DNA of 32,000 nt from Ruminococcus albus 7 = DSM 20455 (GCF_000179635.2 NC_014824.1:330001-362000), one strand, 5' to 3'. Counted from the stretch's first letter, positions 28 to 27,263 are shown. Notes: generated from the sequence alone by a model not told the origin. Translations and numbers: made by a program.

Positions 28-690
28 ATGTTAGACGTAAAATCGATCAAAGAAAAATATCTCCCGGGAACCAGAGTGAAGCTTATTCACATGGATGATC
101 CATATCATCCTGTTCCGGATAATACCTGCGGTACTGTCACTGAAGTTGATGACGTAGGTACTGTTCACGCAAAATTTGACAACGGAAGCGGTCTGGGGAT
201 ATGTCTTGAAGTAGATAAGGTAGAGATAATTGAAATACCATATGTAAGAAAGCTTTATAGAACAGGTAAAGATTCGATCTCCTGCTATCCCATCAATGAA
301 GATTCTGTAGAAATTAAACCAAGCAGCGTATTTGATGATGAATTTGATATCATTGAAAATGACGAAGAAAAAGATTACGGATACACAGAAATTAGCTTTG
401 TAGAAGGGAAGTATCGTGCAGATTGCTGGAAACACAGGCTTCCGCTCAAAGAATTTAGCACATACGAAGAAGCGGTAAATGAGCTGAGAGAATGCTGTAG
501 TTATTGCAGCGGTGATGAAAATACAATAGAGGAAGCTATTAACGATCATCTCATTTGGTGGTGTTCTCACGTTTTTGTTGAGGATATTAAAATTAATAAT
601 ATTCCTGTTTTTGATTTGTCTGATGGTGAAATCAAAAATCTGCTTGATCGTGGTTTTTCAGGTAGCAGGATCTTTATTAGGAGGATATAA
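28..690 (+). CDS. DUF4314-type domain protein (N-terminal DUF4314-like module; Cys-containing C-terminal half of unknown function)
   Basis: 220-aa ORF with a GGAGGAA RBS at 16-22. The N-terminus PGTRVKLIHMDDPYHPVPDNTCGTVTEVDDVGTVHAKFDNGSGL fits the DUF4314 pattern as I remember it (PGtRV.L..MdDp..P...G..GTV..VDD.G...V.WDNG). That domain is typical of Firmicutes conjugative or integrated elements. Confidence 0.6.
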   Translation: MLDVKSIKEKYLPGTRVKLIHMDDPYHPVPDNTCGTVTEVDDVGTVHAKFDNGSGLGICLEVDKVEIIEIPYVRKLYRTGKDSISCYPINEDSVEIKPSSVFDDEFDIIENDEEKDYGYTEISFVEGKYRADCWKHRLPLKEFSTYEEAVNELRECCSYCSGDENTIEEAINDHLIWWCSHVFVEDIKINNIPVFDLSDGEIKNLLDRGFSGSRIFIRRI

Positions 691-842
691 TAAAAATGGG
701 AAGTCTGCAAGGAAGAATGATATGCCCAAATTGCGGAGCTGAAGGAGTATATAACGAATCATAAAATAACTTGTTATTGTTCCGAATTGTCCGATGTAAT
801 CAAAAACTCGGTTTGAATCAATAGAATATAGTATTCAGTTAG

Positions 843-869
843 ACTGCTGCAGAAATGTGGCAGTTTTTT
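843..869 (+). terminator. Rho-independent terminator closing the DUF4314 transcription unit
   Basis: ACTGCTGCA-GAAA-TGTGGCAGT forms a 9-bp stem (two G.U pairs) with a GAAA tetraloop at 843-864. A TTTTT run follows at 865-869. Confidence 0.6.
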
Positions 870-1047
870 ACTGTACTGTTCTTAATAAATATTTTTGCGT
901 AAAAATCGAACTGTATATAAAAATTCCTAAAAAAAATATAAAGCGAGGCGATTTTTTTTTATTTTCAATAATTTTCTTATATAATAAGAGTACAAAGCTT
1001 TCAAATAAACAACCAAACAATATTAAATCATGAAAGGAGAATTATGA

Positions 1048-1323
1048 ATGAATAATTCTATCACAAGACTGAAAGCATCAGCAAAAACAACTCCTAAGAA
1101 CCTTGCATGGGCAATCGTCTCTGCACTCAGCGGTAACAGTGAAAAAGTTGAGATAACAGCAGTTGGAGCCGCAGCAACAAACCAGGTAGTGAAGGCTTTA
1201 GCAATTGCTCGCGGAATGGCTATTACCAAGAATAGGGACGTTATCAGTAAAACGTCTTTTGCAACGCTGGAAATCGATTCTAAGCAGGTTACGGGTATAA
1301 TGTTTGATTGTAGCTTCCAGTAA
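1048..1323 (+). CDS. spoVS: SpoVS-like protein (stage V sporulation protein S family), divergent copy
   Basis: 91-aa ORF with an AAAGGAGA RBS at 1033-1040. KASAKTTPKNLAWAI...EITAVGAAATNQVVKALAIARG aligns by eye with Bacillus SpoVS (KVSAKS.PNSVAGAL...EIQAIGAGALNQAVKAIAIARG). Size matches the ~86-aa family. Confidence 0.75.
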   Translation: MNNSITRLKASAKTTPKNLAWAIVSALSGNSEKVEITAVGAAATNQVVKALAIARGMAITKNRDVISKTSFATLEIDSKQVTGIMFDCSFQ

Positions 1324-1425
1324 TACTTTAAAAAAGAGGCTGTTGCAACCGCAGCACCCTCTAACCATATCCGAACATCAGAGTAAAAAAATATTAACTG
1401 GTGAAATAAGCTGTTTCATTGCGCA

Positions 1426-1464
1426 CACCCCCAAGCCCTCTTCAAAAAAGAGGACTCGGGGGTG
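1426..1464 (-). other. Strong 17-bp hairpin just 3' of the transposase tail (IS-internal terminator-like structure)
   Basis: The arms are 1426-1442 and 1448-1464, with a 5-nt loop. On the minus-strand RNA all 17 positions pair (two G.U). On the plus-strand RNA the same two positions are A.C mismatches. This suggests the structure acts on the transposase transcript. No clear U-tract follows. Confidence 0.45.
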
Positions 1465-1481
1465 TTATGTTCTGCTGGTTT

Positions 1482-2226
1482 TTATGCCGTTTTCAGTTCA
1501 AAAAGAGAAATTCCAAGTCGGTTTTCTGAAATCTTTGCAAAAAGCTTCTTTATGTTGTATGCAAGTCCCAGCAAAAGGAACTCAGTTCTGATATGATGAT
1601 TTATGATGTCCTTTTCCGTAAACTCGTTCAATACCGAATTTTATCATAAGAGAAGACAGGGTCGAGATCATTTCCGATACTCCTGTATTTTCGGGGAATC
1701 TCACACCATAAGCATAATTTATCTCATCAAGTATCTCAGGCAGTTTGGTACGAAGTTTCTGCTCGTTTTTTGAGATCGCCTTTTTCCAGACGAATGTATA
1801 TCTGTTTGCATTAGCTTCGATCTTGGTGCCATCAATGAACAGGTTCTCGCCGCTTATCTCTTTCATATTCAAAAGATACTTTACAACAGTGTAAAACACA
1901 CGCTCGATCTGTTCTCCCATTTTCTGTCGAAATCTTGAGATAGTGCTGTGATCCGGAGCTCCAAAGCCATCGAGAAGCCACATGAAATGGATATCTCTTT
2001 TGCAGAGCTGTTCAATCTTACGGCTTGAAAAAGAGTCGTTCATGTAGCCGTAGATGAGTATCTTCATCATGATATCCTCGGGTATGGCGCCATTCCACTT
2101 GCTTACTATCGTGTATTCTTCTTTTTGATAGATCTCATCTATAACATTGCTCAATACTCTGACAGGTGAGCTTCCTTCGATGTAGATCTCATAATTCATG
2201 TTAAGACGCACTTGACAATTTCTCAT
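1482..2226 (-). pseudogene. IS1182-family transposase, disrupted: N-terminal ~214 aa plus an out-of-frame C-terminal tail, with the catalytic middle missing
   Basis: The N-terminal part (1582-2226/2268) has SSPVRVLSNVIDEI...YGYMNDSFSSRKIEQLCKRDIHFMWL...PDHSTISRFR...LFIDGTKIEANANRYTFVWKK, typical of IS1182 (DUF772-type) N-termini. The ORF stops at 1582. In another frame, 1482-1590 reads RTEFLLLGLAYNIKKLFAKISENRLGISLFELKTA*, which looks like the family's extreme C-terminus. Intact enzymes are roughly twice this length. The track start at 2268 is a TTG only ~5 nt from the -10, so ATG 2226 is the more likely start. Confidence 0.7.
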
Positions 2227-2560
2227 TTTTGTGGTACAATCCTTTCGGTGGTTTAATGGTTTTTGCAATTATATTATACCACAAAAAGAAGAGCTGGCAC
2301 CTTTCATTTCAGGTCTGTGCCAGGCTCTTTTTCTTTGTTGGGGCTGCAACAGCCCCTTGACTTTTATTCATTTGAAAACAATTACATCCAAAACTATCAA
2401 TTAGGTGATATGATATCATACAACTTTAATGATGAACTATCATTGAATCAAACACTTTATGTACAGAAACAGGGCGCAATGGTAATGGATATATCGAATC
2501 TTGTAATGTTACGTGCCAGTATGGCATACGCACTGCTATATAAGTTTGAAAGGATTAATC

Positions 2561-3754
2561 ATGAACCAAAGAATTATGAACGAAAAAGATTTCAGCATTC
2601 CTCAAATTGTAGAAAGCAATGATGAATATGTAGAAAAAGTTATTGCTATACTGAATAATTACAAAACAGTGATTCACGGAAGCATTAGTACAAAATATGA
2701 AACGGCTCTTTTGAAAGATGTTGATTTTGTATGCAATACTCTATTAGAAGCATTAATTCTTGGAACTAAAAGTAAATTTCCAGAAATGGATGAAAAAATG
2801 AAAAATCTGATAGGTTACTATTTAGTGGATGAATTTTGGGTTTCAGAATTAGATCATAACTATGCTTTCCGTGGTGTAACATATTTTGAAAAATTACATA
2901 GTCAGGGTTTTGTGCAACAATATGAAAAGCTGAAAGAAAATGACTTAACATTTTTTCGTGCAGTTTGCCAAAAAGAGACTCCGGATATAAACCGAATGCT
3001 CAATTGTCCTTTTTCATCTATATCTTATGCATCTGCCGGAAGATTTTCTAATCAAGGTGCGTCATGTATGTATTTAGGGACAACATCTTATGTTTGTGCT
3101 AAGGAACTGCGATTTGATGAGAAAACATACAGTCACTTACACGTATCCGCTATCAAATTTAACGAGCTTGGCAAGAAATTAAAAATCCTGAATCTTGCAT
3201 CATCAAAATATTTTAACATTTATGATAGAAGAGATAGTAATAATATAATTCTCAAAGAAATCTGGTTATCTCATCTAAAACTCTATCCCATCATTATTGC
3301 AACTTCTTTTGTTGTAGAAAATCACGCCAATGGTGAGATCAAATACGAGTATTTACTGTCACAGAGTTTGATGCGCACATTGAAAGAGAACGGAATAAAC
3401 GGAATAGCTTATGCTTCTAAAAGAAATACTAATAGCGACTTTGCAATTCCGCACAATATAAACTTGGCGATTTTAGTAGATGATGTCAGTGAAGAAAATG
3501 ATTACGGAACGCTAAAAAACTATTTATCAATTACAGAACCCCAAAAATTTACACAGTCGTTTGTTGACAAGATATCGGAATCAAATGATAATATCGAGCA
3601 TCATAGCTATGTCAACAGTAATTTCAGTGATCCTCATGACTTCAATTCAAAAATCCATTTGCAGGGTGATAACGAACTATATTCTAGTTCGCCATACAGC
3701 ATATTTGACGATTATCTTGTAAACCAACCATTCAAAGACGGAAACCAATTATAA
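2561..3754 (+). CDS. RES-domain-like protein with a long N-terminal extension (putative NAD-targeting toxin/effector), no cognate antitoxin seen
   Basis: ATG 2561 follows a GAAAGGA RBS at 2548-2554, so the track's GTG at 2513 is probably an over-extension. The central region TFFRAV...ASAGRFSNQGASCMYLGTTSYVCAKEL...GINGIAYASKRNT....NINLAIL fits the R / E / S signature and spacing of RES domains (GRfn..G...lYl.....a..E ... gi.y.S.......N.aif). The ~150 aa N-terminal to it and the ~100-aa C-terminal tail are unrecognised. Confidence 0.5.
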   Translation: MNQRIMNEKDFSIPQIVESNDEYVEKVIAILNNYKTVIHGSISTKYETALLKDVDFVCNTLLEALILGTKSKFPEMDEKMKNLIGYYLVDEFWVSELDHNYAFRGVTYFEKLHSQGFVQQYEKLKENDLTFFRAVCQKETPDINRMLNCPFSSISYASAGRFSNQGASCMYLGTTSYVCAKELRFDEKTYSHLHVSAIKFNELGKKLKILNLASSKYFNIYDRRDSNNIILKEIWLSHLKLYPIIIATSFVVENHANGEIKYEYLLSQSLMRTLKENGINGIAYASKRNTNSDFAIPHNINLAILVDDVSEENDYGTLKNYLSITEPQKFTQSFVDKISESNDNIEHHSYVNSNFSDPHDFNSKIHLQGDNELYSSSPYSIFDDYLVNQPFKDGNQL

Positions 3755-4458: not shown

Positions 4459-4956
4459 ATGAACAAATTACTTATACTTGGTGCAGGACAATACGGGAAG
4501 GTCGCTTATGAGATAGCTAAAGCTATGGAACGATTTGAGCGTATTTCTTTTCTTGATGATTATTCTTCGGTTGCGATCGGCAAACTTAATGACTTTGATA
4601 AATATATAGGCGAATACAATAGTGCTGTTGTCGCTATCGGCAATGTAGTAATGCGGCTAAAATTGATTGAACAGCTTGAAAACGCTGGATATGATATTCC
4701 CGTTCTGATATCCCCGAGAGCATATGTTGCTCCGAGTGCTGTGATAGGCAAGGGTAGTTTTGTTGAGCCTATGACCGTCGTGCATACAGAATCGGTTATC
4801 GGCATTGGCTGCATCATTTCCGCAGGAGCGGTAGTAAATCACAATGCGATTGTTGGCGATGGTTGTCACATTGATTGTGGTTCGATAATCGGTGCAAGGG
4901 TAAATACTCCAAGGTACATTACAACAAAATACGGAGAGATTATCACACAAAATTAA
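4459..4956 (+). CDS. NeuD/PglD-family sugar acetyltransferase (Rossmann-like N-domain + left-handed beta-helix)
   Basis: MNKLLILGAGQYGKVAYEIA is an N-terminal nucleotide-binding-like fold. Hexapeptide repeats follow (VIGKGSFVEPMTVVHTESVIGIGCIISAGAVVNHNAIVGDGCHIDCGSIIG). The position directly upstream of a PglC-type transferase is classic. ATG 4459 is preferred over the upstream in-frame start at 4402. Confidence 0.75.
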   Translation: MNKLLILGAGQYGKVAYEIAKAMERFERISFLDDYSSVAIGKLNDFDKYIGEYNSAVVAIGNVVMRLKLIEQLENAGYDIPVLISPRAYVAPSAVIGKGSFVEPMTVVHTESVIGIGCIISAGAVVNHNAIVGDGCHIDCGSIIGARVNTPRYITTKYGEIITQN

Positions 4957-4975
4957 GTAAGCGAGGGATGTTTGA

Positions 4976-5866
4976 TTGAATAAAGCAAAGATCAAAAAGG
5001 CGGCTACGATAACAGGAGCTGCTTTAGGCTTAGCATTTATTGTTATGCGAAAGATTGCTAAACATCAAATGGCAAATGATAAATATAGAAATGATCAGTC
5101 CGAGCAAAATCCAATGTATAAGAAAAGGGTTGTTTTTATCGAAGATGATAATGATCCTGTGAATGCTGACGGAAAACGAGGACACCTTGAAGCTGTTGGA
5201 ATAAGTGAACATATTCAAACATTTTATGAAAAGTACATCAAGCGAGCATTGGATATTATCCTCTCTTTTTGTGGTATGGTGGTGCTTGCACCCGTATATG
5301 CAATGGCAGCTATTGCTATTAAGATAGACGATCCCGGTCCGGTGATTTTCAAACAGAAAAGAATATCTGAGCAGACAGGCTATTTTGATGTGCTGAAATT
5401 CCGTTCGATGAGAATGGATACACCCCGAAATATGCCCACGCACCAGTTATCCAATCCGGATCAATACCTACTACGAACTGGCAAACTTATCAGAAAATGC
5501 AGCATCGACGAACTTCCGCAACTGTGGAACTGCTTTGTTGGTTCGATGAGTATTATTGGACCACGCCCTGCGTTGTGGAATCAAGATTATTTGACTGCCG
5601 AACGAGACAAGTACGGTGCAAATGATATAAAGCCTGGACTTACAGGTCTGGCACAGGTGCACGGCAGAGATGAGTTGGAGATTCCGGACAAGGCAAAGCT
5701 GGACGGCGAATATGCCGCAGCACTCAAGAAGTCAAGCTGGTCGGGTCTGAAAATGGATATAAAGGTATTTGTAGATTCGGTAAAGGCTGTTCTCAAGAGC
5801 GACGGCGTTGTTGAGGGTGGAACCGGAGAGATTCATAAGCAGGAAGAGAATGAAAAGGTGTCGTAA
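4976..5866 (+). CDS. Initiating undecaprenyl-phosphate sugar-phosphate transferase (small PglC/WbaP-C-terminal-type PGT) with an extra N-terminal TM segment and linker
   Basis: Bacterial sugar transferase signatures are present: RALDIILSFCGMVVLAPV...DDPGPVIFKQKRIS..G..F.VLKFRSM, DELPQLWN...GSMSIIGPRP and KPGLTGLAQV. The TTG start at 4976 follows GAGGGA. The first in-frame ATG is 5045. Confidence 0.9.
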   Translation: MNKAKIKKAATITGAALGLAFIVMRKIAKHQMANDKYRNDQSEQNPMYKKRVVFIEDDNDPVNADGKRGHLEAVGISEHIQTFYEKYIKRALDIILSFCGMVVLAPVYAMAAIAIKIDDPGPVIFKQKRISEQTGYFDVLKFRSMRMDTPRNMPTHQLSNPDQYLLRTGKLIRKCSIDELPQLWNCFVGSMSIIGPRPALWNQDYLTAERDKYGANDIKPGLTGLAQVHGRDELEIPDKAKLDGEYAAALKKSSWSGLKMDIKVFVDSVKAVLKSDGVVEGGTGEIHKQEENEKVS

Positions 5867-6739
5867 ATGAAGAAGATCCTTATAACGGGTGCGAACAGTT
5901 ACATAGGCACTTCGTTTGAAAAATATATGGCGCATTTCGGTGCTGAATACCAGATCGATACTGTTGATATGATCGGTGATGCTTGGAAGAGTAAGGATTT
6001 TTCCGAGTATGATTGTGTTTTTCATGTGGCTGGTATCGCGCATTCCGACAACGGCAAGATCAGCAAAGAGAAGGAAAAGCTGTATTATGCTGTAAACACT
6101 GATCTTACTATTGAAACTGCGAAGAAAGCTAAAGCCGAAGGCGTTAAGCAATTTATTTTCATGAGCAGCGCAATAGTTTACGGCAACAGCGGACCTATTG
6201 GTAAAGGCAAGCGTATCACAAAGGATACACCTCTCAGACCTGCAAACTGCTACGGTGACAGCAAAGTACAGGCAGAGAACGGTCTGCGTAAGCTTGATGA
6301 TGACAATTTCAAGGTCGTTATCCTGCGCCCTCCAATGATCTATGGCAAAGGCAGCAAGGGCAATTACCCGCTGATGTCCAAAATGGCACAGAAGCTGCCT
6401 GTATTCCCTTACGTCAAAAACAGACGCTCGATGCTTTACATTGAGAACCTGTGCGAGTTTATCCGACTGATGATCGAGAAAAACGAGCAGGGTACATTCT
6501 GGCCGCAGAATAAGGAGTATAGCAATACTTCAGAAATGGTCAAGATGATCGGTGCGGCTCACGGTAAGAACGTGCATCTGATCCACGGATTTGAGTGGGC
6601 ATTGAAGATTCTGGGACTGTTCACCGGTCTTGTGTACAAGGCGTTTGGAAATCTGTATTATGACAGAAGTTTGAGCATATACAAAAGCAATTATAGAGTA
6701 TGCAGTTTAGCAGAAAGTATAAAGCGAACTGAGGAATGA
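5867..6739 (+). CDS. NAD-dependent epimerase/dehydratase-family SDR (Cap5N-like position; probable 4-keto reductase or 4-epimerase for the initiating sugar)
   Basis: ILITGANSYIGTSF is a glycine-rich NAD motif. MSSAIVYG plus the YGDSK catalytic Y-x3-K are present. TAAATG junction with the upstream PGT gene. Confidence 0.8.
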   Translation: MKKILITGANSYIGTSFEKYMAHFGAEYQIDTVDMIGDAWKSKDFSEYDCVFHVAGIAHSDNGKISKEKEKLYYAVNTDLTIETAKKAKAEGVKQFIFMSSAIVYGNSGPIGKGKRITKDTPLRPANCYGDSKVQAENGLRKLDDDNFKVVILRPPMIYGKGSKGNYPLMSKMAQKLPVFPYVKNRRSMLYIENLCEFIRLMIEKNEQGTFWPQNKEYSNTSEMVKMIGAAHGKNVHLIHGFEWALKILGLFTGLVYKAFGNLYYDRSLSIYKSNYRVCSLAESIKRTEE

Positions 6740-13779: not shown

Positions 13780-14619
13780 GTGAAACAATTTTATAAAGAT
13801 TTTATCGGCAAAACAATAAATAGTCAAGAACAGTTGAAAATACAACTAGACATTCTGAAATATGTTGCAAGTTTTTGTGAAAAGAATGGGCTTCGATATT
13901 TTTTGGCTGATGGAACGCTACTTGGAGCTGTCAGGCATCATGGCTATATTCCTTGGGATGATGATATTGATATACGGATGCCAAGACCAGATTATGAAAA
14001 AATGTGTGAATTATTCAATTCAAAAGATAATGATGGAACATATCATTTAATTCAGCCTTCTGATGACGAAGCACAGCATTATTTTGTCAAGATTATCGAT
14101 ACTCGAACTATCAAGATTGAGCCCTATTTGAACTATAAATTTGGTCTGATTGGGATTGACATTGATGTCTTTCCAATTGATGGAGCACCATCAAATCCGA
14201 ATGAGTATGATAAATATCAAAAAACAATTAGAGGATATAATAAAACGTATATGCTGAAAAAGAAGATTTTTTTTCGCAGGATGTTGACAATCGGAAAAGA
14301 TTTCGTTAAAAATCGCTTCAAAGCTCATTTTTGTCCATTTATGAGTTTTAAGGCAGTTGCACGCAAAGTAAAACAATTATCAAATCAATATGATTTTGAA
14401 AAATCGGAATATGTGTGTCATATTGGTATCGGGGATAGATACCGATTTCCAAGATCAGCATATAGTGATTACAAAATGATGCAGTTTGAAGATACACAGT
14501 TTAGAATTCCTTGTGGTTATGATGAGATATTAACTGCTCATTATGGAGATTATATGAAATTGCCTCCTGTTGAAAAACAGATTACGCATCATGTCAATAA
14601 TGCTTATTGGAAAAAATAA
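13780..14619 (+). CDS. licD: LicD-family phosphotransferase, paralogue 1
   Basis: [28 protein letters not shown] is the LicD nucleotidyltransferase-fold motif (LLGAvRh.[10 protein letters not shown]). The C-terminal YGDYM.LPP motif is also present. GTG start follows an AAGGAGAG RBS. Confidence 0.85.
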
Positions 14620-14632
14620 TGAGGTGAATAGA

Positions 14633-15706
14633 ATGTTAAACTTTACAGTAGGTCCAGTTATGTGCAGTGATGAAGTATGTGCGGTTGGCGGTGAGCAGGT
14701 TCCCTATTTCAGAACGCCGGAATTTTCAGAATTGATGCTGGAAAATGAAAAGCTTATGCTGAAGTTTTCCAAAGCGCCCGCAGGATCGAGAGTAGCTTTT
14801 ATGACCAATTCTTCTACTGGATCGATGGAAGCGACAGTTATGAACTGTTTTACAGCATCGGATAAGGTGCTGGTTATCAACGGCGGTAGCTTTGGTCAGC
14901 GATTTGTTGAACTGTGCGAGATTCATGATGTTCCACACGATATTCTGAAGCTGAATCATGGACAGAAGCTTACCAAAGAAAGACTATATGAATACGACAA
15001 CAAGGACTATACTGGATTGCTTGTCAATATTGATGAAACTTCTACCGGTGTCCTTTATGATTCGGAAATGATTGGTGAATTCTGTAAAAAGAATGATATC
15101 TTCTACGTTTGCGACTGTGTTTCGGCATTCCTAGCTGATACGTTTGATATGGCACACTGCGGTGCGGATGTAATGATAACCGGTTCGCAGAAGGTTCTTG
15201 CTTGCCCTCCTGGCGTTTCCATGATTGTTCTTGCTCCCAGGGCTGCGGAGCGTGTGACAAACGCAAATGTGAAGTCAATGTACTTCAATCTTGCAGATGT
15301 TCTCAAAAATATGGAACGTGGACAGACACCGTTCACTCCTGCTGTTGGTATACTTCGTCAGATAAACACACGACTGAAGGAAATTGAGGCAGCAGGTGGG
15401 GCAGATGCTGAAATTGCCCGTGTTGCAGCCCAGGCACAAGATTTCCGTGAGAAGATCAAAGAATTGCCATTTGAATTTGTATCTGAGTCTCCAGCTAATG
15501 GTGTTACATCGGTTCATCCGTTGAATGCAGATGCCTATGAGATTTTCATGGAACTTAAAGACCATTATGGAATCTGGATTTGTCCGAACGGCGGAGAAAT
15601 GAAAAGTACTATATTCCGTGTTGGTCACATTGGTTACTTGAATCACGAAGACAATACTACGCTTATAAACGCTTTGAAAGATATGCAAAGAAAAGGTAAA
15701 CTGTGA
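14633..15706 (+). CDS. Class-V (AGXT/PhnW/SerC-like) PLP-dependent aminotransferase
   Basis: [10 protein letters not shown]-terminus and a [15 protein letters not shown]-lysine motif, ~357 aa. ATG 14633 follows a GAGGTG RBS and removes the 50-nt overlap implied by the track start at 14570. It is not a DegT/EryC1-type sugar aminotransferase. Confidence 0.8.
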
Positions 15707-15734
15707 GAAAAACGTTTTTAATGGAGATGATATA

Positions 15735-17009
15735 GTGATCAAAGTAATTACATACGGAACATATGATATGCTCCATTATGGACATATTCGTCTACTTGAA
15801 AGAGCCAAAGCACTTGGTGATTATCTTATAGTTGGTGTAACATCTGATGACTATGATAAAACAAGAGGAAAAATTAATCTTCAGCAATCCTTGATGGAAC
15901 GTGTTGAAGCAGTCAAAGCGATAGGTATTGCTGATGAAATAATAGTTGAAGAATACGAAGGTCAAAAAATAGATGATATCCGCCGTTATCAGGTCGATAT
16001 TTTTACTGTTGGTTCTGATTGGGAAGGCAAGTTTGACTATCTTAATGAATACTGCAAGGTCGTATATCTTCCCCGTACTGAGGGCGTATCAAGCTCTGAA
16101 ATACGAGCTGAAAAGAGAAAGCTTAAAATTGGAACCATCGGCGGAAAAGGACTGTGTTCAAAATTCAAAAGAGAAATGCAGTTCGTGAACGGTGTTGAGT
16201 ATCAGGAATGTGGTAATGATTTTAAAAACGTTGATGCGGTATATATTGCAACACATCCCGAAAGACACTATGCCGATGTTAAGAGAGCGCTGGAACTTGG
16301 GAAGCACGTCATCTGCGAGTCACCTATTGCACTCAAAGTTGGTGAATGCAGAGAGCTTTTGAATCTGGCTCATGAAAAAGGTCTTATTTTGACTGATGCG
16401 ATTAAAACTGCATATTCTACTGCTTATTCAAGGTTGCTTGTTGTTGCAAAAAGCGGTAGGATAGGTGATATTATATCCGTGGATTCAGTATGTACAAGCT
16501 TGAGTGATAATGTATATGATGAAAATGTCGATTTGTCACGTAAACAAAATAGTATATGCGCATGGGGACCAACAGCTATGCTTCCAATTTTTCAGTTGCT
16601 TGGGACGGAGTATAGATCAAGTAATATTATTACTCAAATTATTGACAGTAATATAAACTTTGATGGATATACTAAAATTGATTTCGTTTATGATAAGGCT
16701 GTTGCATCTGCAAGAGTAGCAAAAGCAGCAAAGGCCGAAGGTGAACTCGTTATTACTGGTACCAAGGGATACATTTATGTTCCTGCACCTTGGTGGAAAA
16801 CTGATTATTTTGAGATTCGATTTGAAAATCCAGCTGATAATAAAAGGTATTTTTATCAGTTAGATGGAGAGGGAATTAGGTATGAAATAGTTGCGTTTGC
16901 AAAATCGGTAGAAAGTGGACGAGATAATTTCTATATCAATAATTCTATATCGTCAGAAATCTCTAAGACAATAGAAAAGTACAATTCTAATGATTACATT
17001 GAAATATGA
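15735..17009 (+). CDS. Bifunctional fusion: TagD-type glycerol-3-phosphate cytidylyltransferase (aa ~1-130) + Gfo/Idh/MocA-type oxidoreductase (aa ~130-424)
   Basis: The N-terminus VITYGTYDMLHYGHIRLLERAKALGDYLIVGVTSD ... FTVGSDWEGKFDYLNEYCKVVYLPRTEGVSSSEIR is almost colinear with B. subtilis TagD as I remember it. The rest has a Rossmann start (KIGTIGGKG), AVYIATHPERHYADVKRALELGKHVICESPIAL (the family's ..CEKP.. motif reading ESP here) and a dimerisation-type C-domain. GTG start follows GGAG. Confidence 0.85.
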   Translation: MIKVITYGTYDMLHYGHIRLLERAKALGDYLIVGVTSDDYDKTRGKINLQQSLMERVEAVKAIGIADEIIVEEYEGQKIDDIRRYQVDIFTVGSDWEGKFDYLNEYCKVVYLPRTEGVSSSEIRAEKRKLKIGTIGGKGLCSKFKREMQFVNGVEYQECGNDFKNVDAVYIATHPERHYADVKRALELGKHVICESPIALKVGECRELLNLAHEKGLILTDAIKTAYSTAYSRLLVVAKSGRIGDIISVDSVCTSLSDNVYDENVDLSRKQNSICAWGPTAMLPIFQLLGTEYRSSNIITQIIDSNINFDGYTKIDFVYDKAVASARVAKAAKAEGELVITGTKGYIYVPAPWWKTDYFEIRFENPADNKRYFYQLDGEGIRYEIVAFAKSVESGRDNFYINNSISSEISKTIEKYNSNDYIEI

Positions 17010-17021
17010 AAAGGAATAACA

Positions 17022-17870
17022 ATGAATAATGCAAAAGAATTAAGTCCGGAACAGTTTAGAAAAATGCAGCTGACAGAACTCGATATGCTTGTTGAGTTTG
17101 ACAGGGTGTGCCAGAAGAATAAGATCAGATATGTTTTGTTTGGCGGAAGTCTTCTTGGTGCGGTGCGTCATAAAGGATATATTCCATGGGACGATGATGC
17201 GGATATTGGAATGCTGCGTGAAGATTACAATAAATTTAAACGTCATATAAACGAATTGAATCCGGATATTTGTTATTTCCAGGATCATGATACAGACCCA
17301 GAGTATAGATGGGGATATGGGAAGTTGCGTAGAACAGGAACGAAATATGTTCGTGTTGGTCAGGAACATCTGAAATGTAAGACGGGTATATTTGTTGATG
17401 TATTTCCTATGGATGATATTCCTTTGTCAGTATTTGGACAGATACTACAGGATTTGCATTGCTTTTGTCTAAGAAAGATTTTATGGTCCGAAGTTGCTAA
17501 ATACAACACAAAAGGCTTTTGGAAGATATGGTTCACTCTTTTATCGAAGATTCCTGTTTCATTTGCATTTGATCAGTATAAGATTTATGAGAAAAAGAGC
17601 AGAAATCGCACTCCCAACAGAGTGAGATGTCTTTCTTTCCCGGCTACAGGAACCTTGTATAAGAAAAACCCTATCAACGAGCGTTATGGAATGCCAAAAT
17701 CATGGTTTACAGAAAGAAAGAAATATTTCTTTGAGGGAAAGTATTTTTTCAGTTCTCGTGACTTTGATACGGTGTTAAAGTATATTTACGGAGATTATAT
17801 GGAAATTCCAGATGAAAAAGGCAGAGAACAGCATTCGCCGTTTTCGGAAATAAAGTTTCCTGAAGAATAA
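17022..17870 (+). CDS. licD: LicD-family phosphotransferase, paralogue 2
   Basis: [30 protein letters not shown] plus a C-terminal YGDYMEIPD. Confidence 0.85.
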   Translation: MNNAKELSPEQFRKMQLTELDMLVEFDRVCQKNKIRYVLFGGSLLGAVRHKGYIPWDDDADIGMLREDYNKFKRHINELNPDICYFQDHDTDPEYRWGYGKLRRTGTKYVRVGQEHLKCKTGIFVDVFPMDDIPLSVFGQILQDLHCFCLRKILWSEVAKYNTKGFWKIWFTLLSKIPVSFAFDQYKIYEKKSRNRTPNRVRCLSFPATGTLYKKNPINERYGMPKSWFTERKKYFFEGKYFFSSRDFDTVLKYIYGDYMEIPDEKGREQHSPFSEIKFPEE

Positions 17871-17888
17871 ACAAGAAGGAGAAATAGA

Positions 17889-18686
17889 ATGATAGTAAAA
17901 TGCAAGCAGTCAGACATTGATCTGATCTTATCTTATATAGGCAATGATTATCCAAAATGCCTATATCTCTTTCTTAATGTAAATAAATATGGTTTGGAAC
18001 ACGGCAGAATTGAAGCGTTTATCCAATACTGCAAGGGTGATATCAGTTCTGTTATGTTGCAGTATTACTCTTGTTTACACATCTATTCAAAGGATAATTA
18101 TTTTGATAATGAAGAACTGACCGACTTCATTTTCTCTAAGAAAGAACTGACTATGCTTTATTGTGAAGCTTCAACCGCTGATAAGATTGCTTCAAACCTT
18201 TCCAAAAAGACAGACAAACAATTTTCTGTTACAAAGGGGTGGGTAGCTCAAATAAATGCTCTTAAAACAACTCCTAATGGTCTGGCAGAAAAGGCTGAGA
18301 GTAAAGATTTTGAACAGATTGTCAAAATGATCTATGATGATGAGGATATCGGGAGATCGTATAAATATGATGAACTGGCAAAACAGCTTGAAGAAAGAAA
18401 TAAAGAAGGGTATTCACGGAATTTAGTTATCAAGGATAATGAATTAGTAATAGCACACGCTTGTACAAATGCAGAATTTGAAAATGTGTCTGTTGTAGCA
18501 GAATTACTTGTCAGGAAAGAATATCGCAGGCAGGGTCATGCTTCAGAAATATGGGGAGATATCTGTAAAGAGTTGCTGGAAGAAGGGAAAGAGGTCTATT
18601 CATTTTATTATTCGTTTGAATCTCGTGCTTTACATAAGAAACTTGGTTTTGAAGAGGTTTGTGAGTGGTCTAAAATAGTATTCTAA
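17889..18686 (+). CDS. GNAT-family N-acetyltransferase (C-terminal GNAT fold; N-terminal ~150 aa unassigned)
   Basis: VAELLVRKEYRRQGHASEIWGDICKELLEEG ... LHKKLGFEEV matches the acetyl-CoA-binding motif A (R/Q-x-x-G-x-A/G) and the terminal beta-strands of GNATs. Confidence 0.65.
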   Translation: MIVKCKQSDIDLILSYIGNDYPKCLYLFLNVNKYGLEHGRIEAFIQYCKGDISSVMLQYYSCLHIYSKDNYFDNEELTDFIFSKKELTMLYCEASTADKIASNLSKKTDKQFSVTKGWVAQINALKTTPNGLAEKAESKDFEQIVKMIYDDEDIGRSYKYDELAKQLEERNKEGYSRNLVIKDNELVIAHACTNAEFENVSVVAELLVRKEYRRQGHASEIWGDICKELLEEGKEVYSFYYSFESRALHKKLGFEEVCEWSKIVF

Positions 18687-18704
18687 CGTTAATAGGTGGA
18701 TAAT

Positions 18705-19550
18705 ATGAATGAAGAAAACAAAAAAATATGGGCAGTTGAGCTTGATCTCCTTGAAAAACTAAAGGATATTTGTAATAAGTACGGTTTGAAATACTGTGCA
18801 AGTTCCGGAACTTTACTTGGTGCAGTACGTCATAAGGGTTTTATTCCCTGGGATGATGATATTGATGTTTTTCTTCCGTGGGCGGATTACAAAAAGTTAT
18901 TGGAAGTAGCACCAAAAGAATGTTCCTATCCGTTCTTCTTTCAGAGTTTTCTGAATGAAAAGGACGGTGAAACAAGTGCTAGTAGACTTAGAAGAAGTGA
19001 TACTACTGGTTTTACAAAATGGGAGTATGAAAATGTCGGTGCTGACTATGACAAAGGTATTTTTATTGACATTTTTCCGCTGTTCTATGTTCCTGAATCT
19101 AAGGCTGATCAGGCTGCTCAAAAGGAAACCATTATGTTTTTCTGGAAATGCATTAGAGGACATGACGCATTAGTCCAAATTAACAGAGGAAAAACACCAA
19201 ACCCAGACTATGAAAAGTACATAATGTATTATAAATGCGTAAGTGAATCAATGACAATCACGGATATCAAATGGGCCTATCTAAACGCTTGTGCAATTGA
19301 TGATAAACCTACATCGATAGTAGGTGCAACTTCTTCTCGTGTGCATTTAGATTCTCTTATGTGGGAAACAGCACTCTATGACGAGTATATTGATTTACCA
19401 TTTGAAAATACGACAATCAAAGTGCCAAAATACTACGAGGCTGTTTTGGATAAACAATATGGCGATTGGAGAACACCCATTGAAAATGGATCTCGGCATG
19501 AAATGATTGTTATAGATACTGAAACACCTTGGAGAAAGTATATGAAGTAG
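18705..19550 (+). CDS. licD: LicD-family phosphotransferase, paralogue 3
   Basis: [26 protein letters not shown] plus a C-terminal YGDWRTP. ATG 18705 follows AGGTGG. The track start GTG 18696 lies inside the RBS. Confidence 0.85.
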   Translation: MNEENKKIWAVELDLLEKLKDICNKYGLKYCASSGTLLGAVRHKGFIPWDDDIDVFLPWADYKKLLEVAPKECSYPFFFQSFLNEKDGETSASRLRRSDTTGFTKWEYENVGADYDKGIFIDIFPLFYVPESKADQAAQKETIMFFWKCIRGHDALVQINRGKTPNPDYEKYIMYYKCVSESMTITDIKWAYLNACAIDDKPTSIVGATSSRVHLDSLMWETALYDEYIDLPFENTTIKVPKYYEAVLDKQYGDWRTPIENGSRHEMIVIDTETPWRKYMK

Positions 19551-23392: not shown

Positions 23393-25132
23393 ATGGGAAA
23401 GTATTCTGTAGAAAAAAGTATTCAGATTCTTATTGCAATATTAAAGGCAAATAACATAAGAAAGGTTATTGTCAGTCCCGGCACAACAAATATCAGCTTG
23501 GTTGTAAGTATGGTGAACGACGGAAGCTTTGAAATGTATTCTGCTGTAGATGAGCGAGGTGCAGCATATATTGCCTGCGGTCTTGCATCGGAAAGCGGAG
23601 AACCCGTTGTTATTACTTGCACAGGTTCAACTGCATCCAGAAATTACTACCCAGGACTGACCGAAGCGTTTTATCGCAAATTACCTATCCTTGCAATTAC
23701 TGCTTCTCAGGATTTTGTTCGTAACGGAAATCTAAGTCCCCAATTCATTGATAGAACTCAGCAGCCCAAAGACAGCGTTTTGCTCAGTGTCCAGATTCCA
23801 ATTGTCAGAAATTCAGCTGATGAATATGATGCTACAATTAAGATCAACAGAGCTGTAACGGAGCTTTTTCACCATGGCGGCGGACCTGTACATATTAATC
23901 TAGCTTCGAGCTATACTAATGATTTTTCTGTTGAAGAATTACCAAGTGTTCATATAATTAATCGACATACATATAGTGACCAAAAACAATATCCCAAAAT
24001 TGAGCTGGGTAAAAAAGTTGGTATAATTATTGGAAATCATAAAACATTCAGTGTGCAGTTAACAGAAGCAATCGACAATTTCTGTGCAATATACGATGCA
24101 GTGGTGATCGTTGATCACAGCAGTCACTATTGGGGAAATTACAGAGTTCTTCCTACAATTCTTACTTGCCAGGGAGCTCATAACTCTAAATTGTTTGATT
24201 TTGAATTATTGATCCATATTGGTGAGGCACACGGTGATTATTATACTGAACCATATATGAAGCGTGCGAAAGAAGTATGGCGCATAAGCGAAGATGGCGA
24301 GATAAGGGATACATTTGGGGTATTAACCAATTTGTTTGAAATGACGGAATTACACTTCTTTGATACATATAACAAAAACTTTCAAGAAGTGAATCCTAAG
24401 CATGATCAAAGAGATCTGTTTTATAAAGAAATAAATGATATATATGATCAAATTCCAGAGCTGCCTTTTTCAAATATATGGATTGCTCAGCAAATTATTC
24501 CCCAATTTCCTTCGGATGCTTGTTTGGAATTAGGAGTTAGCAATACCATGAGATCATGGACATTTTTTGATTTCAAATCGGAAGTCTATGTTTTGGCTAA
24601 CACAGGATGTCGTGGAATCGATGGAGCTATTCCTACATTGGTCGGAATGTCACTTGCAGATCCTGAAAAAATACATTTTGCGGTCATGGGTGATTTGACG
24701 TTCTTTTATAGCTTTAATGTTCTTGGAAACCGACATATTGGTAAGAATTTAAGAATTTTGTTGGTCAATAATGGATGTGGCGAAGAATTCAATATATACT
24801 CAAATAGGGCATATAAAATATATGATGGCGATCACGAAAAAATTAATGAGTTTATCGCAGCCGGAAATCAAACCGGAACCAGATCAAAACAATTAGTGAA
24901 ACATTTTGCAGAAGATATTGGAATGAAATATATGACTGCATCAAATAAAGAAGAATTCACGCAATTATTGCCGGAATTTTTAAATACTGAGTCTGAAAGC
25001 GACTCCATTATTTTTGAAGTCTTTACAGATGTTGATGAAGAAAATACCGCATTAAAACTCATAAGAAATATAAGAATTGATACATCATCAGCTATAAAAG
25101 GGAAAATCAAAAGTTTATTGGGAAGAAAATAA
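23393..25132 (+). CDS. Thiamine-diphosphate enzyme of the MenD (SEPHCHC synthase) type, in a non-menaquinone context
   Basis: Three-domain-size ThDP enzyme (579 aa). The N-terminal Pyr domain VIVSPGTTNISLV...AVDERGAAYIACGLA...PVVITCTGSTASRNYYPGLTEAFYRKLPILAITAS parallels MenD (..SPGSRS.PL....DER...F.ALG......PV.L.CTSGTA.ANL.PA..EA....PL..LTAD) rather than acetolactate synthase (HEQ). The PP-domain motif MGDLTFFYSFNVLG......LRILLVNNGCGEEF parallels MenD GDLS..YD.N.L.......L.I...NN.GG.IF. Confidence 0.7.
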   Translation: MGKYSVEKSIQILIAILKANNIRKVIVSPGTTNISLVVSMVNDGSFEMYSAVDERGAAYIACGLASESGEPVVITCTGSTASRNYYPGLTEAFYRKLPILAITASQDFVRNGNLSPQFIDRTQQPKDSVLLSVQIPIVRNSADEYDATIKINRAVTELFHHGGGPVHINLASSYTNDFSVEELPSVHIINRHTYSDQKQYPKIELGKKVGIIIGNHKTFSVQLTEAIDNFCAIYDAVVIVDHSSHYWGNYRVLPTILTCQGAHNSKLFDFELLIHIGEAHGDYYTEPYMKRAKEVWRISEDGEIRDTFGVLTNLFEMTELHFFDTYNKNFQEVNPKHDQRDLFYKEINDIYDQIPELPFSNIWIAQQIIPQFPSDACLELGVSNTMRSWTFFDFKSEVYVLANTGCRGIDGAIPTLVGMSLADPEKIHFAVMGDLTFFYSFNVLGNRHIGKNLRILLVNNGCGEEFNIYSNRAYKIYDGDHEKINEFIAAGNQTGTRSKQLVKHFAEDIGMKYMTASNKEEFTQLLPEFLNTESESDSIIFEVFTDVDEENTALKLIRNIRIDTSSAIKGKIKSLLGRK

Positions 25133-25153
25133 GATTATTTAAAGGGAATTCGA

Positions 25154-26209
25154 ATGAAAGTATTATTACTAGGCGGAACCGGAGCAATGGGAACACATGT
25201 CATTGACTTCCTTAAGAAAAAAGATAAAATTGAAATAGTTGTTTCTTCACGTTCTGCAAGAAAAGCTAATGATAAAGTTACATATGTCCAAGGTAATGCT
25301 AAAGACATTACATTCCTAAAAGAATTGTGCAAACAGCATTGGGATGCTATTCTAGATTTTATGGTTTACACAACATCAGAATTGCAAAGTCGAATTGACT
25401 TACTATTATCTTCTACAGTTCAGTATTTATTTTTCAGTTCAGCAAGAGTATATGCTGATTCATCAGACCTAATAACAGAGGACAGCCCCAGATTATTAGA
25501 TGTTTGTACAGATCAAACATATTTATCTACAGATGAATATGCACTTGCAAAAGCACGAGAAGAAAATATTCTCTTTTCTCATAAGAATAAAAACTGGACA
25601 ATTATCAGACCAAGCTTAACTTATGGCGAGAATCGCTTACAGTTGGGTGTTTATGAAAAAGAAAATTGGCTGTATCGAGCGTTACATGGTAGATCTATTG
25701 TTTTTTCAAAAGATTTGATGGAAAGGTACTATACTCTTTCTTATGGAAAAGATGTAGCTGAAGGAATTGCAGCACTTGTAGGCAATAAAGACGCGGTAGG
25801 AGAGGTCTTTCATATTGTTCAGGATCAGTCATTTCAGTGGAAAAACATATTAGAGTTATATGTAGCTGAGATTGAAAAAGTTACCGGAAAGAAACCTAAT
25901 GTTGTATTAACTGAGAAGTCAACAAATTTAAAACTGGAATATAAAAAGTATCAAGTTATATATGGCAGATATTTCAACAGGCATTTTGATAATTCTAAAA
26001 TCAAAAAGTTTGTTGATACCTCAAATTGGTTGCAACCTGATGATGGCTTGGTACAATGCCTTGATACGTTTTTAAAAGAGCCTGTATATCAGAATATTGA
26101 TTGGAATGTAGAAGTATTGCTTGATAAGGCAGCACATGAATTTACTCCAATAAAAGATATAAAAGGCAAAAGAGCAAAACTAAGCTATCTAAAGCATAGA
26201 TTTATATGA
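25154..26209 (+). CDS. NAD(P)-dependent SDR (extended epimerase/dehydratase/reductase family)
   Basis: VLLLGGTGAMGTHV glycine-rich motif, FFSSARVY and a YALAK catalytic Y-x3-K. It starts 21 nt after the MenD-like gene. Confidence 0.75.
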   Translation: MKVLLLGGTGAMGTHVIDFLKKKDKIEIVVSSRSARKANDKVTYVQGNAKDITFLKELCKQHWDAILDFMVYTTSELQSRIDLLLSSTVQYLFFSSARVYADSSDLITEDSPRLLDVCTDQTYLSTDEYALAKAREENILFSHKNKNWTIIRPSLTYGENRLQLGVYEKENWLYRALHGRSIVFSKDLMERYYTLSYGKDVAEGIAALVGNKDAVGEVFHIVQDQSFQWKNILELYVAEIEKVTGKKPNVVLTEKSTNLKLEYKKYQVIYGRYFNRHFDNSKIKKFVDTSNWLQPDDGLVQCLDTFLKEPVYQNIDWNVEVLLDKAAHEFTPIKDIKGKRAKLSYLKHRFI

Positions 26210-26258: not shown

Positions 26259-27263
26259 GTGTATGCTGCAACAGAGCAGAACAGAACAGAACAGAACAGA
26301 ACAGAACAGAGTAATACTATTCAATTATTCAGAGGACTTTCAATAATAGCTGTTGTATTTATACACAACACGCCTTCCGGAATAACACAGGTTTTTGTAA
26401 GACCATTTCTTAACTTTTCTGTAGGTTTATTCTTGTTTCTTAGCGGATTTCTAACTGATCCCAATAAAATTTCAATAAAGAAAAGACTTAAAAAAGTCTT
26501 AATACCCTATGTTATATGGACTGCTGTTTATGTGATTTTATATAATTATCAATCACCAGGCTCCATTCCCTTGCTATTCTTTAAAAACTTGATTACGGCA
26601 AATTCAGCTGCGATGATGTATTATATTGCAGTATACTGTCAGTTAACTTTGTTAGTTCCAATAATCAACAAGTTTGCAAATTCAAAATATAAATACTGGT
26701 TCCTTTTGATTTCTCCAATTGAAATAATAGTAATGCGAACACTCCCTATACTGTTTAGATTTCAATTTCCTAATATTATAACATCAATTATGCATATCTC
26801 GTTTGTGGGATGGTTTGAATATTACTATCTTGGATATCTTATTGGTAATAAGAAATTAGAGTTGTCAAGTATAAAAATACGAAAGATGTATTTTCTACTA
26901 GCTTTTTCGATACTATTTCAGTATGGAGAAGGTTTCCTTTTTTACTCATTGGAAAGTGATAAATGTGGAACTCAATTGAAGCTCAGCAGCTTGGCTACAG
27001 GAATTGTTATTTGCTTGATTAGCTGTTGCTTTATTACTAATGGAAAGAAATATAACTGTACCGCTATAAAGAATCTTGGCGATAAATCATTTGGTATTTA
27101 TTTATCACATATGGCTATTATGCGTTTGTTAGGATTGATCCCCTTTTATTCGGAATATGTTGTATTTCCAATAAATGCTGGTATTATCATCATGTTTTCA
27201 TATTTATTTGCTATTATTAGTAGTAGCATTCTTGCAAAGAATAATTATATTTGGAATGTGTAA
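26259..27263 (+). CDS. Acyltransferase-3 family membrane O-acyltransferase (polysaccharide O-acetyltransferase)
   Basis: LFRGLSIIAVVFIHN is followed by about ten hydrophobic segments and a late FGIYLSH motif, typical of acyltransferase_3 (OatA/WecH-like) proteins. GTG 26259 lies 7 nt after GGAGG. The 5' end contains the (CAGAA)n tract. Confidence 0.8.
   Translation: MYAATEQNRTEQNRTEQSNTIQLFRGLSIIAVVFIHNTPSGITQVFVRPFLNFSVGLFLFLSGFLTDPNKISIKKRLKKVLIPYVIWTAVYVILYNYQSPGSIPLLFFKNLITANSAAMMYYIAVYCQLTLLVPIINKFANSKYKYWFLLISPIEIIVMRTLPILFRFQFPNIITSIMHISFVGWFEYYYLGYLIGNKKLELSSIKIRKMYFLLAFSILFQYGEGFLFYSLESDKCGTQLKLSSLATGIVICLISCCFITNGKKYNCTAIKNLGDKSFGIYLSHMAIMRLLGLIPFYSEYVVFPINAGIIIMFSYLFAIISSSILAKNNYIWNV
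26271..26310 (+). repeat. Pentanucleotide microsatellite: (CAGAA)x6+CAGA perfect (26277-26310), 8 units with one mismatch from 26271
   Basis: Read directly: ACAGA GCAGA ACAGA ACAGA ACAGA ACAGA ACAGA ACAGA. It lies within codons 5-18 of the acyltransferase ORF. Confidence 0.95.

Follow-up and report, generated by a model that had tools for sequence, protein, structure and literature searches.

Amine-bearing and zwitterionic decorations of glycans, such as phosphocholine, phosphoethanolamine, 2-aminoethylphosphonate (AEP) and the D-alanyl groups of teichoic acids, shape immune recognition, resistance to antimicrobial peptides and phage adsorption. TarI/TarJ and Bcs1 of H. influenzae are reductase-cytidylyltransferases that synthesize polyols activated with cytidine diphosphate (CDP), and their products are used by the LicD-family enzymes FKTN/FKRP or by TagF-type transferases. 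In the case of FKTN and FKRP, tandem ribitol phosphate is built by priming and then extension. A conversion of dihydroxyacetone phosphate (DHAP) to serinol phosphate that depends on pyridoxal phosphate (PLP) has been described for Cj1437 in the capsule pathway of C. jejuni (PMC11800397) and for RtxA's N-terminal domain in the rhizobitoxine pathway (PMC3222319). Here we analyze a stretch of 32,000 nucleotides of Ruminococcus albus 7 = DSM 20455 (GCF_000179635.2 NC_014824.1:330001-362000), referred to below as the window, in which a capsule-type locus contains six genes encoding three LicD-family phosphotransferases, a class-V aminotransferase (AT), a TagD-like cytidylyltransferase fused to a Gfo/Idh/MocA-fold domain (FUS, with CT for its cytidylyltransferase domain) and a GNAT acyltransferase. 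We consider it likely that these genes produce a CDP-activated amino-alcohol phosphate that is transferred by LicD.

The initial annotation had placed the six genes and assigned their domains, and both the translations and the Pfam profile searches bear it out. All six open reading frames (ORFs) are on the + strand, and we take them to be co-transcribed. LicD1 (13780..14619, 279 amino acids [aa], PF04991) is followed by the PLP-dependent AT (14633..15706, 357 aa, Aminotran_5) and by FUS (15735..17009, 424 aa, CTP_transf_like plus GFO_IDH_MocA). Residues 1-126 of FUS (15735..16112) make up the CT, and residues 127-424 (16113..17009) the Gfo/Idh/MocA fold, the latter assigned from an AlphaFold2 (AF2) model and a partial Pfam match. 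Then come LicD2 (17022..17870, 282 aa, LicD), a tandem-GNAT N-acyltransferase (17889..18686, 265 aa, Acetyltransf_1) and LicD3 (LicD), which ends at 19550 and starts either with the GTG at 18696 (284 aa) or, as is likelier, with the ATG at 18705 (281 aa, the length given by gene callers on an identical contig, L001; L numbers designate related loci). For the AT, the ATG at 14633 is the most likely start, with a GAGGTG Shine-Dalgarno sequence and an N-terminus that agrees with that of PDB entry 3f0h. The intergenic spacers were first put at 3-19 nucleotides (nt) and measure 13, 28, 12, 18 and 9 nt in cassette order. The single terminator-like hairpin in the scanned region (17609-17624) lies within the LicD2 coding sequence, and terminator-like sites were rarer in this region than in shuffled sequence.

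Linkage of the six genes across genomes

The survey covered the best 80 hits per scan, and ORFs in the related loci were delimited by a longest-ORF heuristic with a tblastn cross-check. FUS relatives number more than 8000 at cluster level, the best 120 being 76-98% identical, and at least 594 species genomes of GTDB, from several phyla, carry FUS. The carriers include Lachnospiraceae, Oscillospiraceae, Ruminococcus, Erysipelotrichaceae, Selenomonadales, Segatella/Prevotella, Elusimicrobia, Lentisphaeria and a metagenome-assembled genome (MAG) of Methanobrevibacter. In 71 of 77 GTDB loci, FUS has a PLP aminotransferase no more than 6 kb away, and in 65 this enzyme is encoded directly upstream. 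Among the best 80 loci, the aminotransferase was of class V in 47 with direct upstream adjacency and in one more within 6 kb, and of class I/II in 18 and five more, respectively, while only four loci with adequate flanking DNA had neither class. Similarly, when the search started from the AT, FUS was directly downstream in 61 of 74 metagenome loci and no more than 2.6 kb downstream in five more.

The linkage extends to the other genes. The full order LicD-AT-FUS-LicD-GNAT-LicD was found again in L093, L094 and four metagenome loci, and the loci sharing it differ in their glycosyltransferases, polymerases and initiating enzymes. An identical FUS protein occurs in five metagenome contigs, the module genes of which are 91-100% identical to those of the window and in the same order. 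The five-gene core AT-FUS-LicD-GNAT-LicD is present in L006, and 13 more loci display a permuted order, LicD-(LicD)-GNAT-AT-FUS. In two proteins (P0243 and P0266), a TagD-like domain is fused directly to a member of the AT family without a Gfo domain, the AT half matching 3f0h with E=7e-81. LicD genes were present in 39 of 78 FUS loci and TagF-like glycerophosphotransferases in six, and we read both types of enzyme as the downstream users of a CDP donor. Since the recurrence of the same gene order in independent contigs goes far beyond chance, the six genes are a genuine cassette and form one functional module, as had been proposed and as a co-occurrence test fixed beforehand now confirms.

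FUS proteins at 58-63% identity were found in a Methanobrevibacter MAG (L079), Elusimicrobiaceae (L041), Lentisphaeria (L067) and Segatella (L044, L053 and L066). Locus L079 has the order AT-FUS-LicD, and the partner of FUS in L041 is a class I/II aminotransferase. The presence of FUS in a methanogen MAG and in distant bacterial phyla, all from gut or rumen samples, indicates horizontal transfer across phyla and domains. Cassette-positive locus L093 also encodes, at 4678-5912, a separate stand-alone TagD-like cytidylyltransferase (145 aa) adjoining a CDP-alcohol phosphatidyltransferase. The joint presence of a CDP-glycerol-type system and AT-FUS in this locus suggests that they supply different donors.

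The cytidylyltransferase fusion

The CT matched the Pfam CTP_transf_like profile over residues 5-125 (E=5e-20) and TagD of B. subtilis (1coz) with E=1.4e-36, as compared with E=1e-15 to 1e-10 for the ethanolamine-phosphate and choline-phosphate cytidylyltransferases. This much closer relationship to TagD favors a C3 substrate. Motifs H14-Y-G-H17 and R114-TEGVSSS, as well as K46, are present and invariant in the alignment, and the mean pairwise identity of the domain across the 78 members of the clade is 82%. With respect to TIGR01518, the TagD equivalog model, the score of 123.8 bits is below the cut-off of 165.4, so that the domain is called TagD-like and not TagD, and the architecture of the 424-aa fusion is unlike that of the stand-alone TagD of about 130 aa. 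A search of a plasmid collection yielded stand-alone tagD matches only (52-54% identity between the CT and the annotated genes) and no annotated full-length relative of FUS. We also considered whether substrate specificity could be read from the residues that differ from TagD, but the acidic substitutions occur as well in the canonical, aminotransferase-free clade and are hence uninformative. In distant FUS relatives (P0139, P0140 and P0141; L089 2948-5089), a C-terminal glycerophosphodiester phosphodiesterase (GDPD) domain, an N-terminal metallophosphoesterase domain or both are appended, which suggests that some lineages scavenge glycerol-3-phosphate from phosphodiesters for a related CDP donor.

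The second half of FUS is a Gfo/Idh/MocA protein in fold. Its AF2 model (pLDDT 90.9) shows the two domains typical of the family, and the best Foldseek matches, with E~1e-21 (2e-21), were 2o48 (dimeric dihydrodiol dehydrogenase), 3e9m and KijD10, and 4had was also matched. The Pfam match to GFO_IDH_MocA is confined to residues 156-219 and to positions 54-116 of the 120 in the profile (E=2e-14). The lysine of the EKP motif is replaced, CESP aligning to the CEKP/LEKP/VEKP of 4had, 3e9m, 3evn and 2o48, and nearly all 78 clade members have CE(S/A/T)P at this position. In all 78, an NSICAWGPTA-type motif stands in place of the catalytic G-G-x-x-x-(D/E)-x-x-x-(Y/H), so that A-W-G-P-T of the window protein coincides with E-L-x-S-Y of the fusion relatives that keep the canonical motif. 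The GxGxxG loop is not kept either, and reads IGTIGGKGL in the window and LGLVGESPI in the wider clade. In addition, the sub-clade of the window has a deletion of approximately 22-26 residues in the first beta-alpha-beta unit, relative to members of 445 aa. Because motif loss is common to members with and without the deletion, the catalytic residues must have been lost before the deletion became tolerable. On the other hand, the domain is conserved: its pairwise identity averages 50-59%, and dozens of positions, a PAPWWKTDYFE block among them, are at least 95% conserved.

More distant fusion relatives offer a comparison. About 10 of 45 full-length representatives keep GxGRI, EKP and E..SY. Four relatives (40-47% identical; three with the full set of canonical Gfo motifs) had usable contexts (L086, L087, L089 and L090; the contigs of P0126, P0130 and P0152 were too short), and in all four IspD, SDR (short-chain dehydrogenase/reductase), TagF (Glyphos_transf) or LicD genes, and no aminotransferase, were found as neighbors. 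The simplest reading is that the ancestor was a reductase-cytidylyltransferase making a CDP-polyol, and that in the window clade an aminotransferase later took over the carbonyl chemistry while the Gfo half became a scaffold. Judging from these sequence comparisons, the Gfo half is probably functional but non-canonical and non-redox, and it probably acts as an oligomerization, scaffold or ligand-binding domain.

These observations bear on the route that the initial annotation had outlined, in which the Gfo domain oxidizes the C2 alcohol. There, TagD-type activation of glycerol-3-phosphate to CDP-glycerol would be followed by oxidation to CDP-dihydroxyacetone (Gfo), transamination to CDP-serinol (AT), acetylation by the GNAT and transfer by LicD. 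Such a sequence follows the same logic as WbpB/WbpE and GnnA/GnnB, where a dehydrogenase is paired with an aminotransferase, and the fusion of the domains together with the tight AT-FUS adjacency would suit a channelled pair. The good folding and conservation of the Gfo-fold domain, the TagD-like character of the CT in AT-linked and canonical clades alike, and the GDPD fusions of the distant relatives, which point to entry through glycerol-3-phosphate, are also in its favor. However, it is the AT-linked clade that lacks the EKP lysine, the Asp/Glu plus Tyr/His pair and the GxGxxG loop, and the sub-clade of the window has also lost part of the dinucleotide-binding unit. Moreover, the relatives with canonical motifs are those without an aminotransferase, and CT-AT fusions dispense with the Gfo domain altogether. 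We therefore drop the oxidation step and regard this route as unlikely. Pfam searches detected no other oxidoreductase among the six genes of the cassette. With the Gfo catalytic residues missing and no second oxidoreductase, the keto substrate must be a common metabolite. A route that begins with DHAP fits better, as DHAP is already in the cell and no oxidation is needed.

Aminotransferase, acyltransferase and LicD paralogues

The AT matched Pfam Aminotran_5 with E=4e-17 and, with E=8.6e-188, PDB entry 3f0h, a member of the same family deposited by structural genomics as 'Aminotransferase' with its function unassigned. It keeps the Schiff-base lysine (SQK) and the pyridine-binding aspartate (DCVSAF), both aligned with those of 3f0h and 2dr1. 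Profile and PDB comparisons agree with the earlier prediction of an AGXT/PhnW-like and not DegT-like enzyme, and the scores for all NCBIfam equivalog models were under the cut-off. A PDB match (9os7) that was suspected to represent a CT-AT fusion is actually the ancillary domain of a Mycoplasma methionyl-tRNA synthetase.

The class I/II partners of FUS are HisC-like, as their best PDB matches were histidinol-phosphate aminotransferases with E~1e-33, compared with 1e-12 for the CobD decarboxylase. The substrate of HisC is a 3-substituted 2-oxopropyl phosphate, that is, DHAP with imidazole replacing the hydroxyl. On a distance tree of FUS (UPGMA, unweighted pair group method with arithmetic mean, on identities), class V and class I/II partners are intermingled, and at least about 17 changes from one to the other are seen. 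The repeated swapping of two unrelated PLP families in one slot points to a single, simple transamination of a phosphorylated carbonyl compound shared by both.

Were that carbonyl compound phosphonoacetaldehyde or an aldehyde of the phosphoglycolaldehyde type, the cassette would make a known C2 donor, CDP-ethanolamine or CMP-2-aminoethylphosphonate (CMP, cytidine monophosphate). PhnW-AepZ is indeed the top NCBIfam match of the AT, and PntC-AEPT (6pd1), an aminotransferase-cytidylyltransferase fusion accompanied by LicD-like transferases, provides a precedent in structure and logic (PMC6697681). Of the phosphoenolpyruvate (PEP) mutases, 23.6% are fused to PF01467-type cytidylyltransferases (PMC6697681). 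A MenD-like thiamine pyrophosphate (TPP) enzyme, possibly a 2-oxo-acid decarboxylase, is also encoded in the window and beside AT-FUS in a few loci. However, the AT is far under the cut-offs of the AEP-transaminase models (148 bits versus 361 for PhnW-AepZ, and 111 versus 401 for a second equivalog), the CT is much nearer TagD than the ethanolamine-phosphate enzyme, phosphoglycolaldehyde has no known source, and the TPP enzyme was found in just about 6 of 78 loci. In a six-frame scan of the window and 85 related loci (1.4 Mb of flanks), the PEP-mutase motif EDKx5NS was absent from the window and present in one of the 86 records (L074), where it belongs to a separate, divergent module. Sub-cut-off transaminase scores together with the near-absence of this motif argue that the pathway is not a phosphonate one; AEP synthesis was ruled out by the motif scan as the general function, and a C2 donor of either kind appears quite improbable to us.

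The product of the AT would bear a free amine, and the neighboring genes are in keeping with this. The GNAT matched Pfam Acetyltransf_1 with E=4.5e-8, and a sequence search of the PDB gave no match to it. Its AF2 model (pLDDT 93) is that of a tandem GNAT, in which the N-terminal half is a pseudo-GNAT and the C-terminal half is active and carries the acyl-CoA motif R213-R-Q-G216-H-A218 (R-x-x-G-x-A), G216 and A218 being invariant in the alignment. Foldseek matched the model to glycine N-acyltransferase (GLYAT), VipF, mycothiol synthase MshD, glucosamine N-acetyltransferase and TDP-fucosamine acetyltransferase WecD, and most of the structural matches with an assigned function are acyltransferases of small-molecule primary amines. 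The family is small (178 hits), and for many of these hits the longest contig is equal in length to that of a close FUS hit, which suggests that the two share contigs. The gene keeps its position in L093, L094 and L006, and about one AT locus in four has it; it is thus an optional accessory.

Other loci have two other GNAT families, an Octopine_DH-family enzyme, an ATP-grasp enzyme or S-adenosylmethionine (SAM) methyltransferases in the same neighborhood. This variety of amine-tailoring enzymes in the same place argues for a core product with a free primary amine that is tailored in a lineage-specific manner, and it hints at a family of related head groups. The Octopine_DH-family enzyme is encoded directly upstream of FUS (about 1.1 kb) in L057, L059 and L075 and could catalyze N-carboxyalkylation of the amine. 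The ATP-grasp gene lies between AT and FUS, and the SAM methyltransferases are accompanied by a HAD phosphatase and a LicC-like nucleotidyltransferase. Loci with alternative tailoring genes also include L035 (8821-9972), L033 (8014-9964) and L128 (6538-7281).

LicD1, LicD2 and LicD3 matched the Pfam LicD profile (PF04991) with E=9.4e-50, 1.4e-40 and 4.3e-39, respectively, each over positions 1-227 of 227, and the acidic PWDDD(I/A)D motif noted previously is seen in all three translations, as PWDDDID in LicD1 and LicD3 and as PWDDDAD in LicD2. Their pairwise identity is just 27-36% (27-30% for LicD1 with LicD2 and LicD3), which indicates old paralogues. A LicD gene is directly upstream of AT in many related loci. 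LicD2, the sole and weak PDB match of which was FKRP, has orthologues of 56-82% identity adjoining FUS in 13 loci (L006, L009, L013, L017, L020, L021, L029, L038, L041, L060, L069, L101 and L102), and is the paralogue inherited together with AT-FUS. Orthologues of LicD3 (55-90% identical) are found downstream of the GNAT in L006, L101 and L102.

Proposed route, capsule locus and comparison with known systems

Catalytic motifs are intact in the AT, CT, GNAT and LicDs, the canonical ones of the Gfo half are lost, and the genes are linked; on this basis we infer the substrate, the order of the steps and the acceptor as follows. The AT would aminate a glycolytic triose phosphate, most likely DHAP, to yield serinol phosphate (2-amino-3-hydroxypropyl phosphate); amination of glyceraldehyde-3-phosphate to 3-amino-2-hydroxypropyl phosphate would be a less likely reaction. 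The TagD-like domain would then couple the amino-alcohol phosphate with cytidine triphosphate (CTP) to form a CDP-amino-alcohol, and the tandem GNAT may N-acylate the free amine of part or all of the pool, at one stage or another. Finally, the three LicDs would move the phospho-amino-alcohol from the CDP donor to the polysaccharide, a step for which the family chemistry is established and the acceptors are putative: different positions of the repeat unit, or the hydroxyl left free on a previously attached unit, in which case priming would be followed by extension on the hydroxymethyl group. The cassette would thus be a self-contained module that places a phosphodiester-linked amino-alcohol on a Wzx/Wzy-type surface polysaccharide. 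Of what had been predicted at the outset, the domain assignments and the linked six-gene module are borne out, a CDP-amino-C3-alcohol phosphate product, maybe N-acylated, stands as the best guess, and the oxidation step is not supported. For triose phosphate amination, CDP ester formation and LicD transfer with a non-redox Gfo domain, taken together, we put the chances as even.

Several points weigh against this proposal. AGXT/PhnW-type enzymes usually take aldehydes or 2-oxo acids, and we know of no confirmed DHAP precedent for the family. The CT of the AT-linked clade has no obvious sequence change with respect to that of the canonical clade, which would fit equally well a cytidylylation of glycerol-3-phosphate or DHAP first, with the amine added on the CDP ester. 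The Gfo domain is clearly under purifying selection, with many conserved charged residues, and may have kept some unusual role in catalysis or cofactor binding. Why one donor should need three LicDs is unexplained, and donors from elsewhere in the genome could be involved. The identity of the amino-alcohol, lastly, is deduced entirely from the genes.

Triose phosphate amination can be carried further, to a version that we put forward only tentatively and consider rather unlikely as a whole. The donor would be CDP-serinol or CDP-N-acylserinol, a so far undescribed nucleotide-activated amino-alcohol, with which the three LicDs would prime a short oligo- or poly(serinol-phosphate) chain on the capsule and then extend it at the free hydroxymethyl. 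The chain would be the nitrogen-containing counterpart of a poly(glycerol-phosphate) teichoic acid, its charge set by GNAT acylation and not by D-alanylation. The Gfo half would descend from a CDP-glycerol synthase that reduced DHAP and would survive as a pseudo-enzyme, the aminotransferase now replacing the reductase chemistry, and the system would have spread horizontally through gut Firmicutes, Bacteroidota (Segatella copri), Elusimicrobia, Lentisphaeria and even Methanobrevibacter.

The cassette lies in a Wzx/Wzy capsule or exopolysaccharide locus of the type found in low-GC gut Clostridia, with its genes on the + strand. On the 5' side are a Bac_transf initiating transferase, FnlA/B/C-like genes, glycosyltransferases and a Wzy-like membrane protein, and on the 3' side a GT2 glycosyltransferase, a pyruvyl transferase, a Wzx flippase, the MenD-like TPP enzyme, an SDR and an acyltransferase. 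A PglD-like acetyltransferase is also encoded in the window, and adds to the FnlA/B/C-like set of amino-sugar enzymes. The GC content ranges from 29% to 46% across the window and falls to 29-30% at 11-14 kb (GT1 and Wzy-like genes). Upstream of the capsule locus there are genes for a DUF4314 protein (28-690), a DUF772 transposase fragment (1582-2268, minus strand) and a RES-domain protein (2513-3754). The GC dip and these upstream genes (1-3754) fit a mosaic, horizontally assembled locus. That the six genes are mere neighbors in such a mosaic, with FUS supplying CDP-glycerol for LicD transfer of plain glycerol-phosphate and the AT and GNAT serving an amino-sugar or some unrelated step, could draw on the uneven GC content, on the similarity of the CT to genuine TagD and on the amino-sugar enzymes of the window, but is very improbable, because reciprocal AT-FUS adjacency, repeated swaps of aminotransferase class and CT-AT fusions are inexplicable by chance, and because sugar aminotransferases are of the DegT type and the AT of the window is of the AGXT/PhnW type.

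Two further features of the locus were observed. An (AACAG) pentanucleotide repeated 8.2 times at 26270-26310, at the 5' end of an Acyl_transf_3 ORF (26259-27263), encodes TEQNR repeats. As a change in the copy number of a 5-nt unit alters the frame, the repeat could switch O-acylation of the polysaccharide through slipped-strand phase variation. The MenD-like TPP enzyme (579 aa; TIGR00173, 163 bits, under the cut-off) and an SDR/epimerase-family protein (351 aa) are encoded at 23393-26209, 4 kb downstream of the module. In loci among L015, L024, L039, L050, L061, L128, L130 and L137, these two genes directly adjoin AT-FUS or AT, in most cases along with a pyruvyl transferase gene, and the pair may feed or modify the same substituent.

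In our searches of full-text literature, neither CDP-serinol nor a glycan with serinol in phosphodiester linkage turned up, and we came upon no account of the gene set, in agreement with the view that the system is undescribed. A preprint on the qim locus of S. pyogenes concerns GlcNAc-ribitol and is unrelated, and a review of gut polysaccharides held nothing relevant to the cassette. If the proposal is true, a large share of gut and rumen microbes, including a methanogen, bear a chemically undescribed glycan substituent, given the number of species-level genomes that encode FUS. FUS would also be a clear example of an oxidoreductase domain converted to non-redox use. The orphan entry 3f0h gains a candidate function that can be tested, and the cassette amounts to a natural experiment, two unrelated families of aminotransferase having taken each other's place again and again.

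Among the described systems, the Pnt pathway resembles the proposal in that a small amino-phosph(on)ate arises through a class-V aminotransferase, is activated with CTP by a cytidylyltransferase and is attached to surface glycans by LicD-like enzymes (Rice et al. 2019, PMC6697681; 6pd1), and the CT-AT fusions mentioned above have in principle the PntC-AEPT architecture. Unlike the cassette, however, Pnt requires a PEP mutase and a phosphonopyruvate decarboxylase and yields a C-P compound, and characterized PntC is LicC/MobA-like (PF12804), whereas the CT is TagD-like (PF01467) and linked to a Gfo-fold domain. The Lic phosphocholine pathway (LicA/B/C/D, and LicD1/LicD2 in pneumococci) also relies on a CDP-activated, zwitterion-forming head group and on paralogous LicDs acting at different glycan positions, but the cassette has no choline transporter, kinase or LicC, uses another family of cytidylyltransferase and would make its head group de novo by transamination. 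With Cj1437 and RtxA the likeness is one of reaction, the direct transamination of DHAP proposed here, and of purpose, the modification of a surface glycan. In C. jejuni, by contrast, an ATP-dependent amidoligase joins serinol phosphate to glucuronate and the phosphate is then removed, so that there is neither the CDP activation nor the phosphodiester of our proposal.

As in TarIJ and Bcs1, the cytidylyltransferase of the cassette is coupled to a domain of an oxidoreductase family and its product would be used by LicD or TagF enzymes, and the distant FUS relatives with an intact Gfo domain sit in such a context. The window clade differs in having lost the oxidoreductase residues and recruited an aminotransferase, and the expected product has NH2 (or N-acetyl, NHAc) in place of OH. 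Gal80, a eukaryotic transcriptional regulator, has the Gfo/Idh/MocA fold without the catalytic residues and is non-redox. The Gfo half similarly keeps the fold without these residues but, unlike Gal80, it is fused to a nucleotidyltransferase. In summary, the cassette follows the logic of Lic, Pnt and TarIJ, and its new features would be the family of the cytidylyltransferase, a C3 head group aminated de novo, a stripped Gfo domain and interchangeable aminotransferases.

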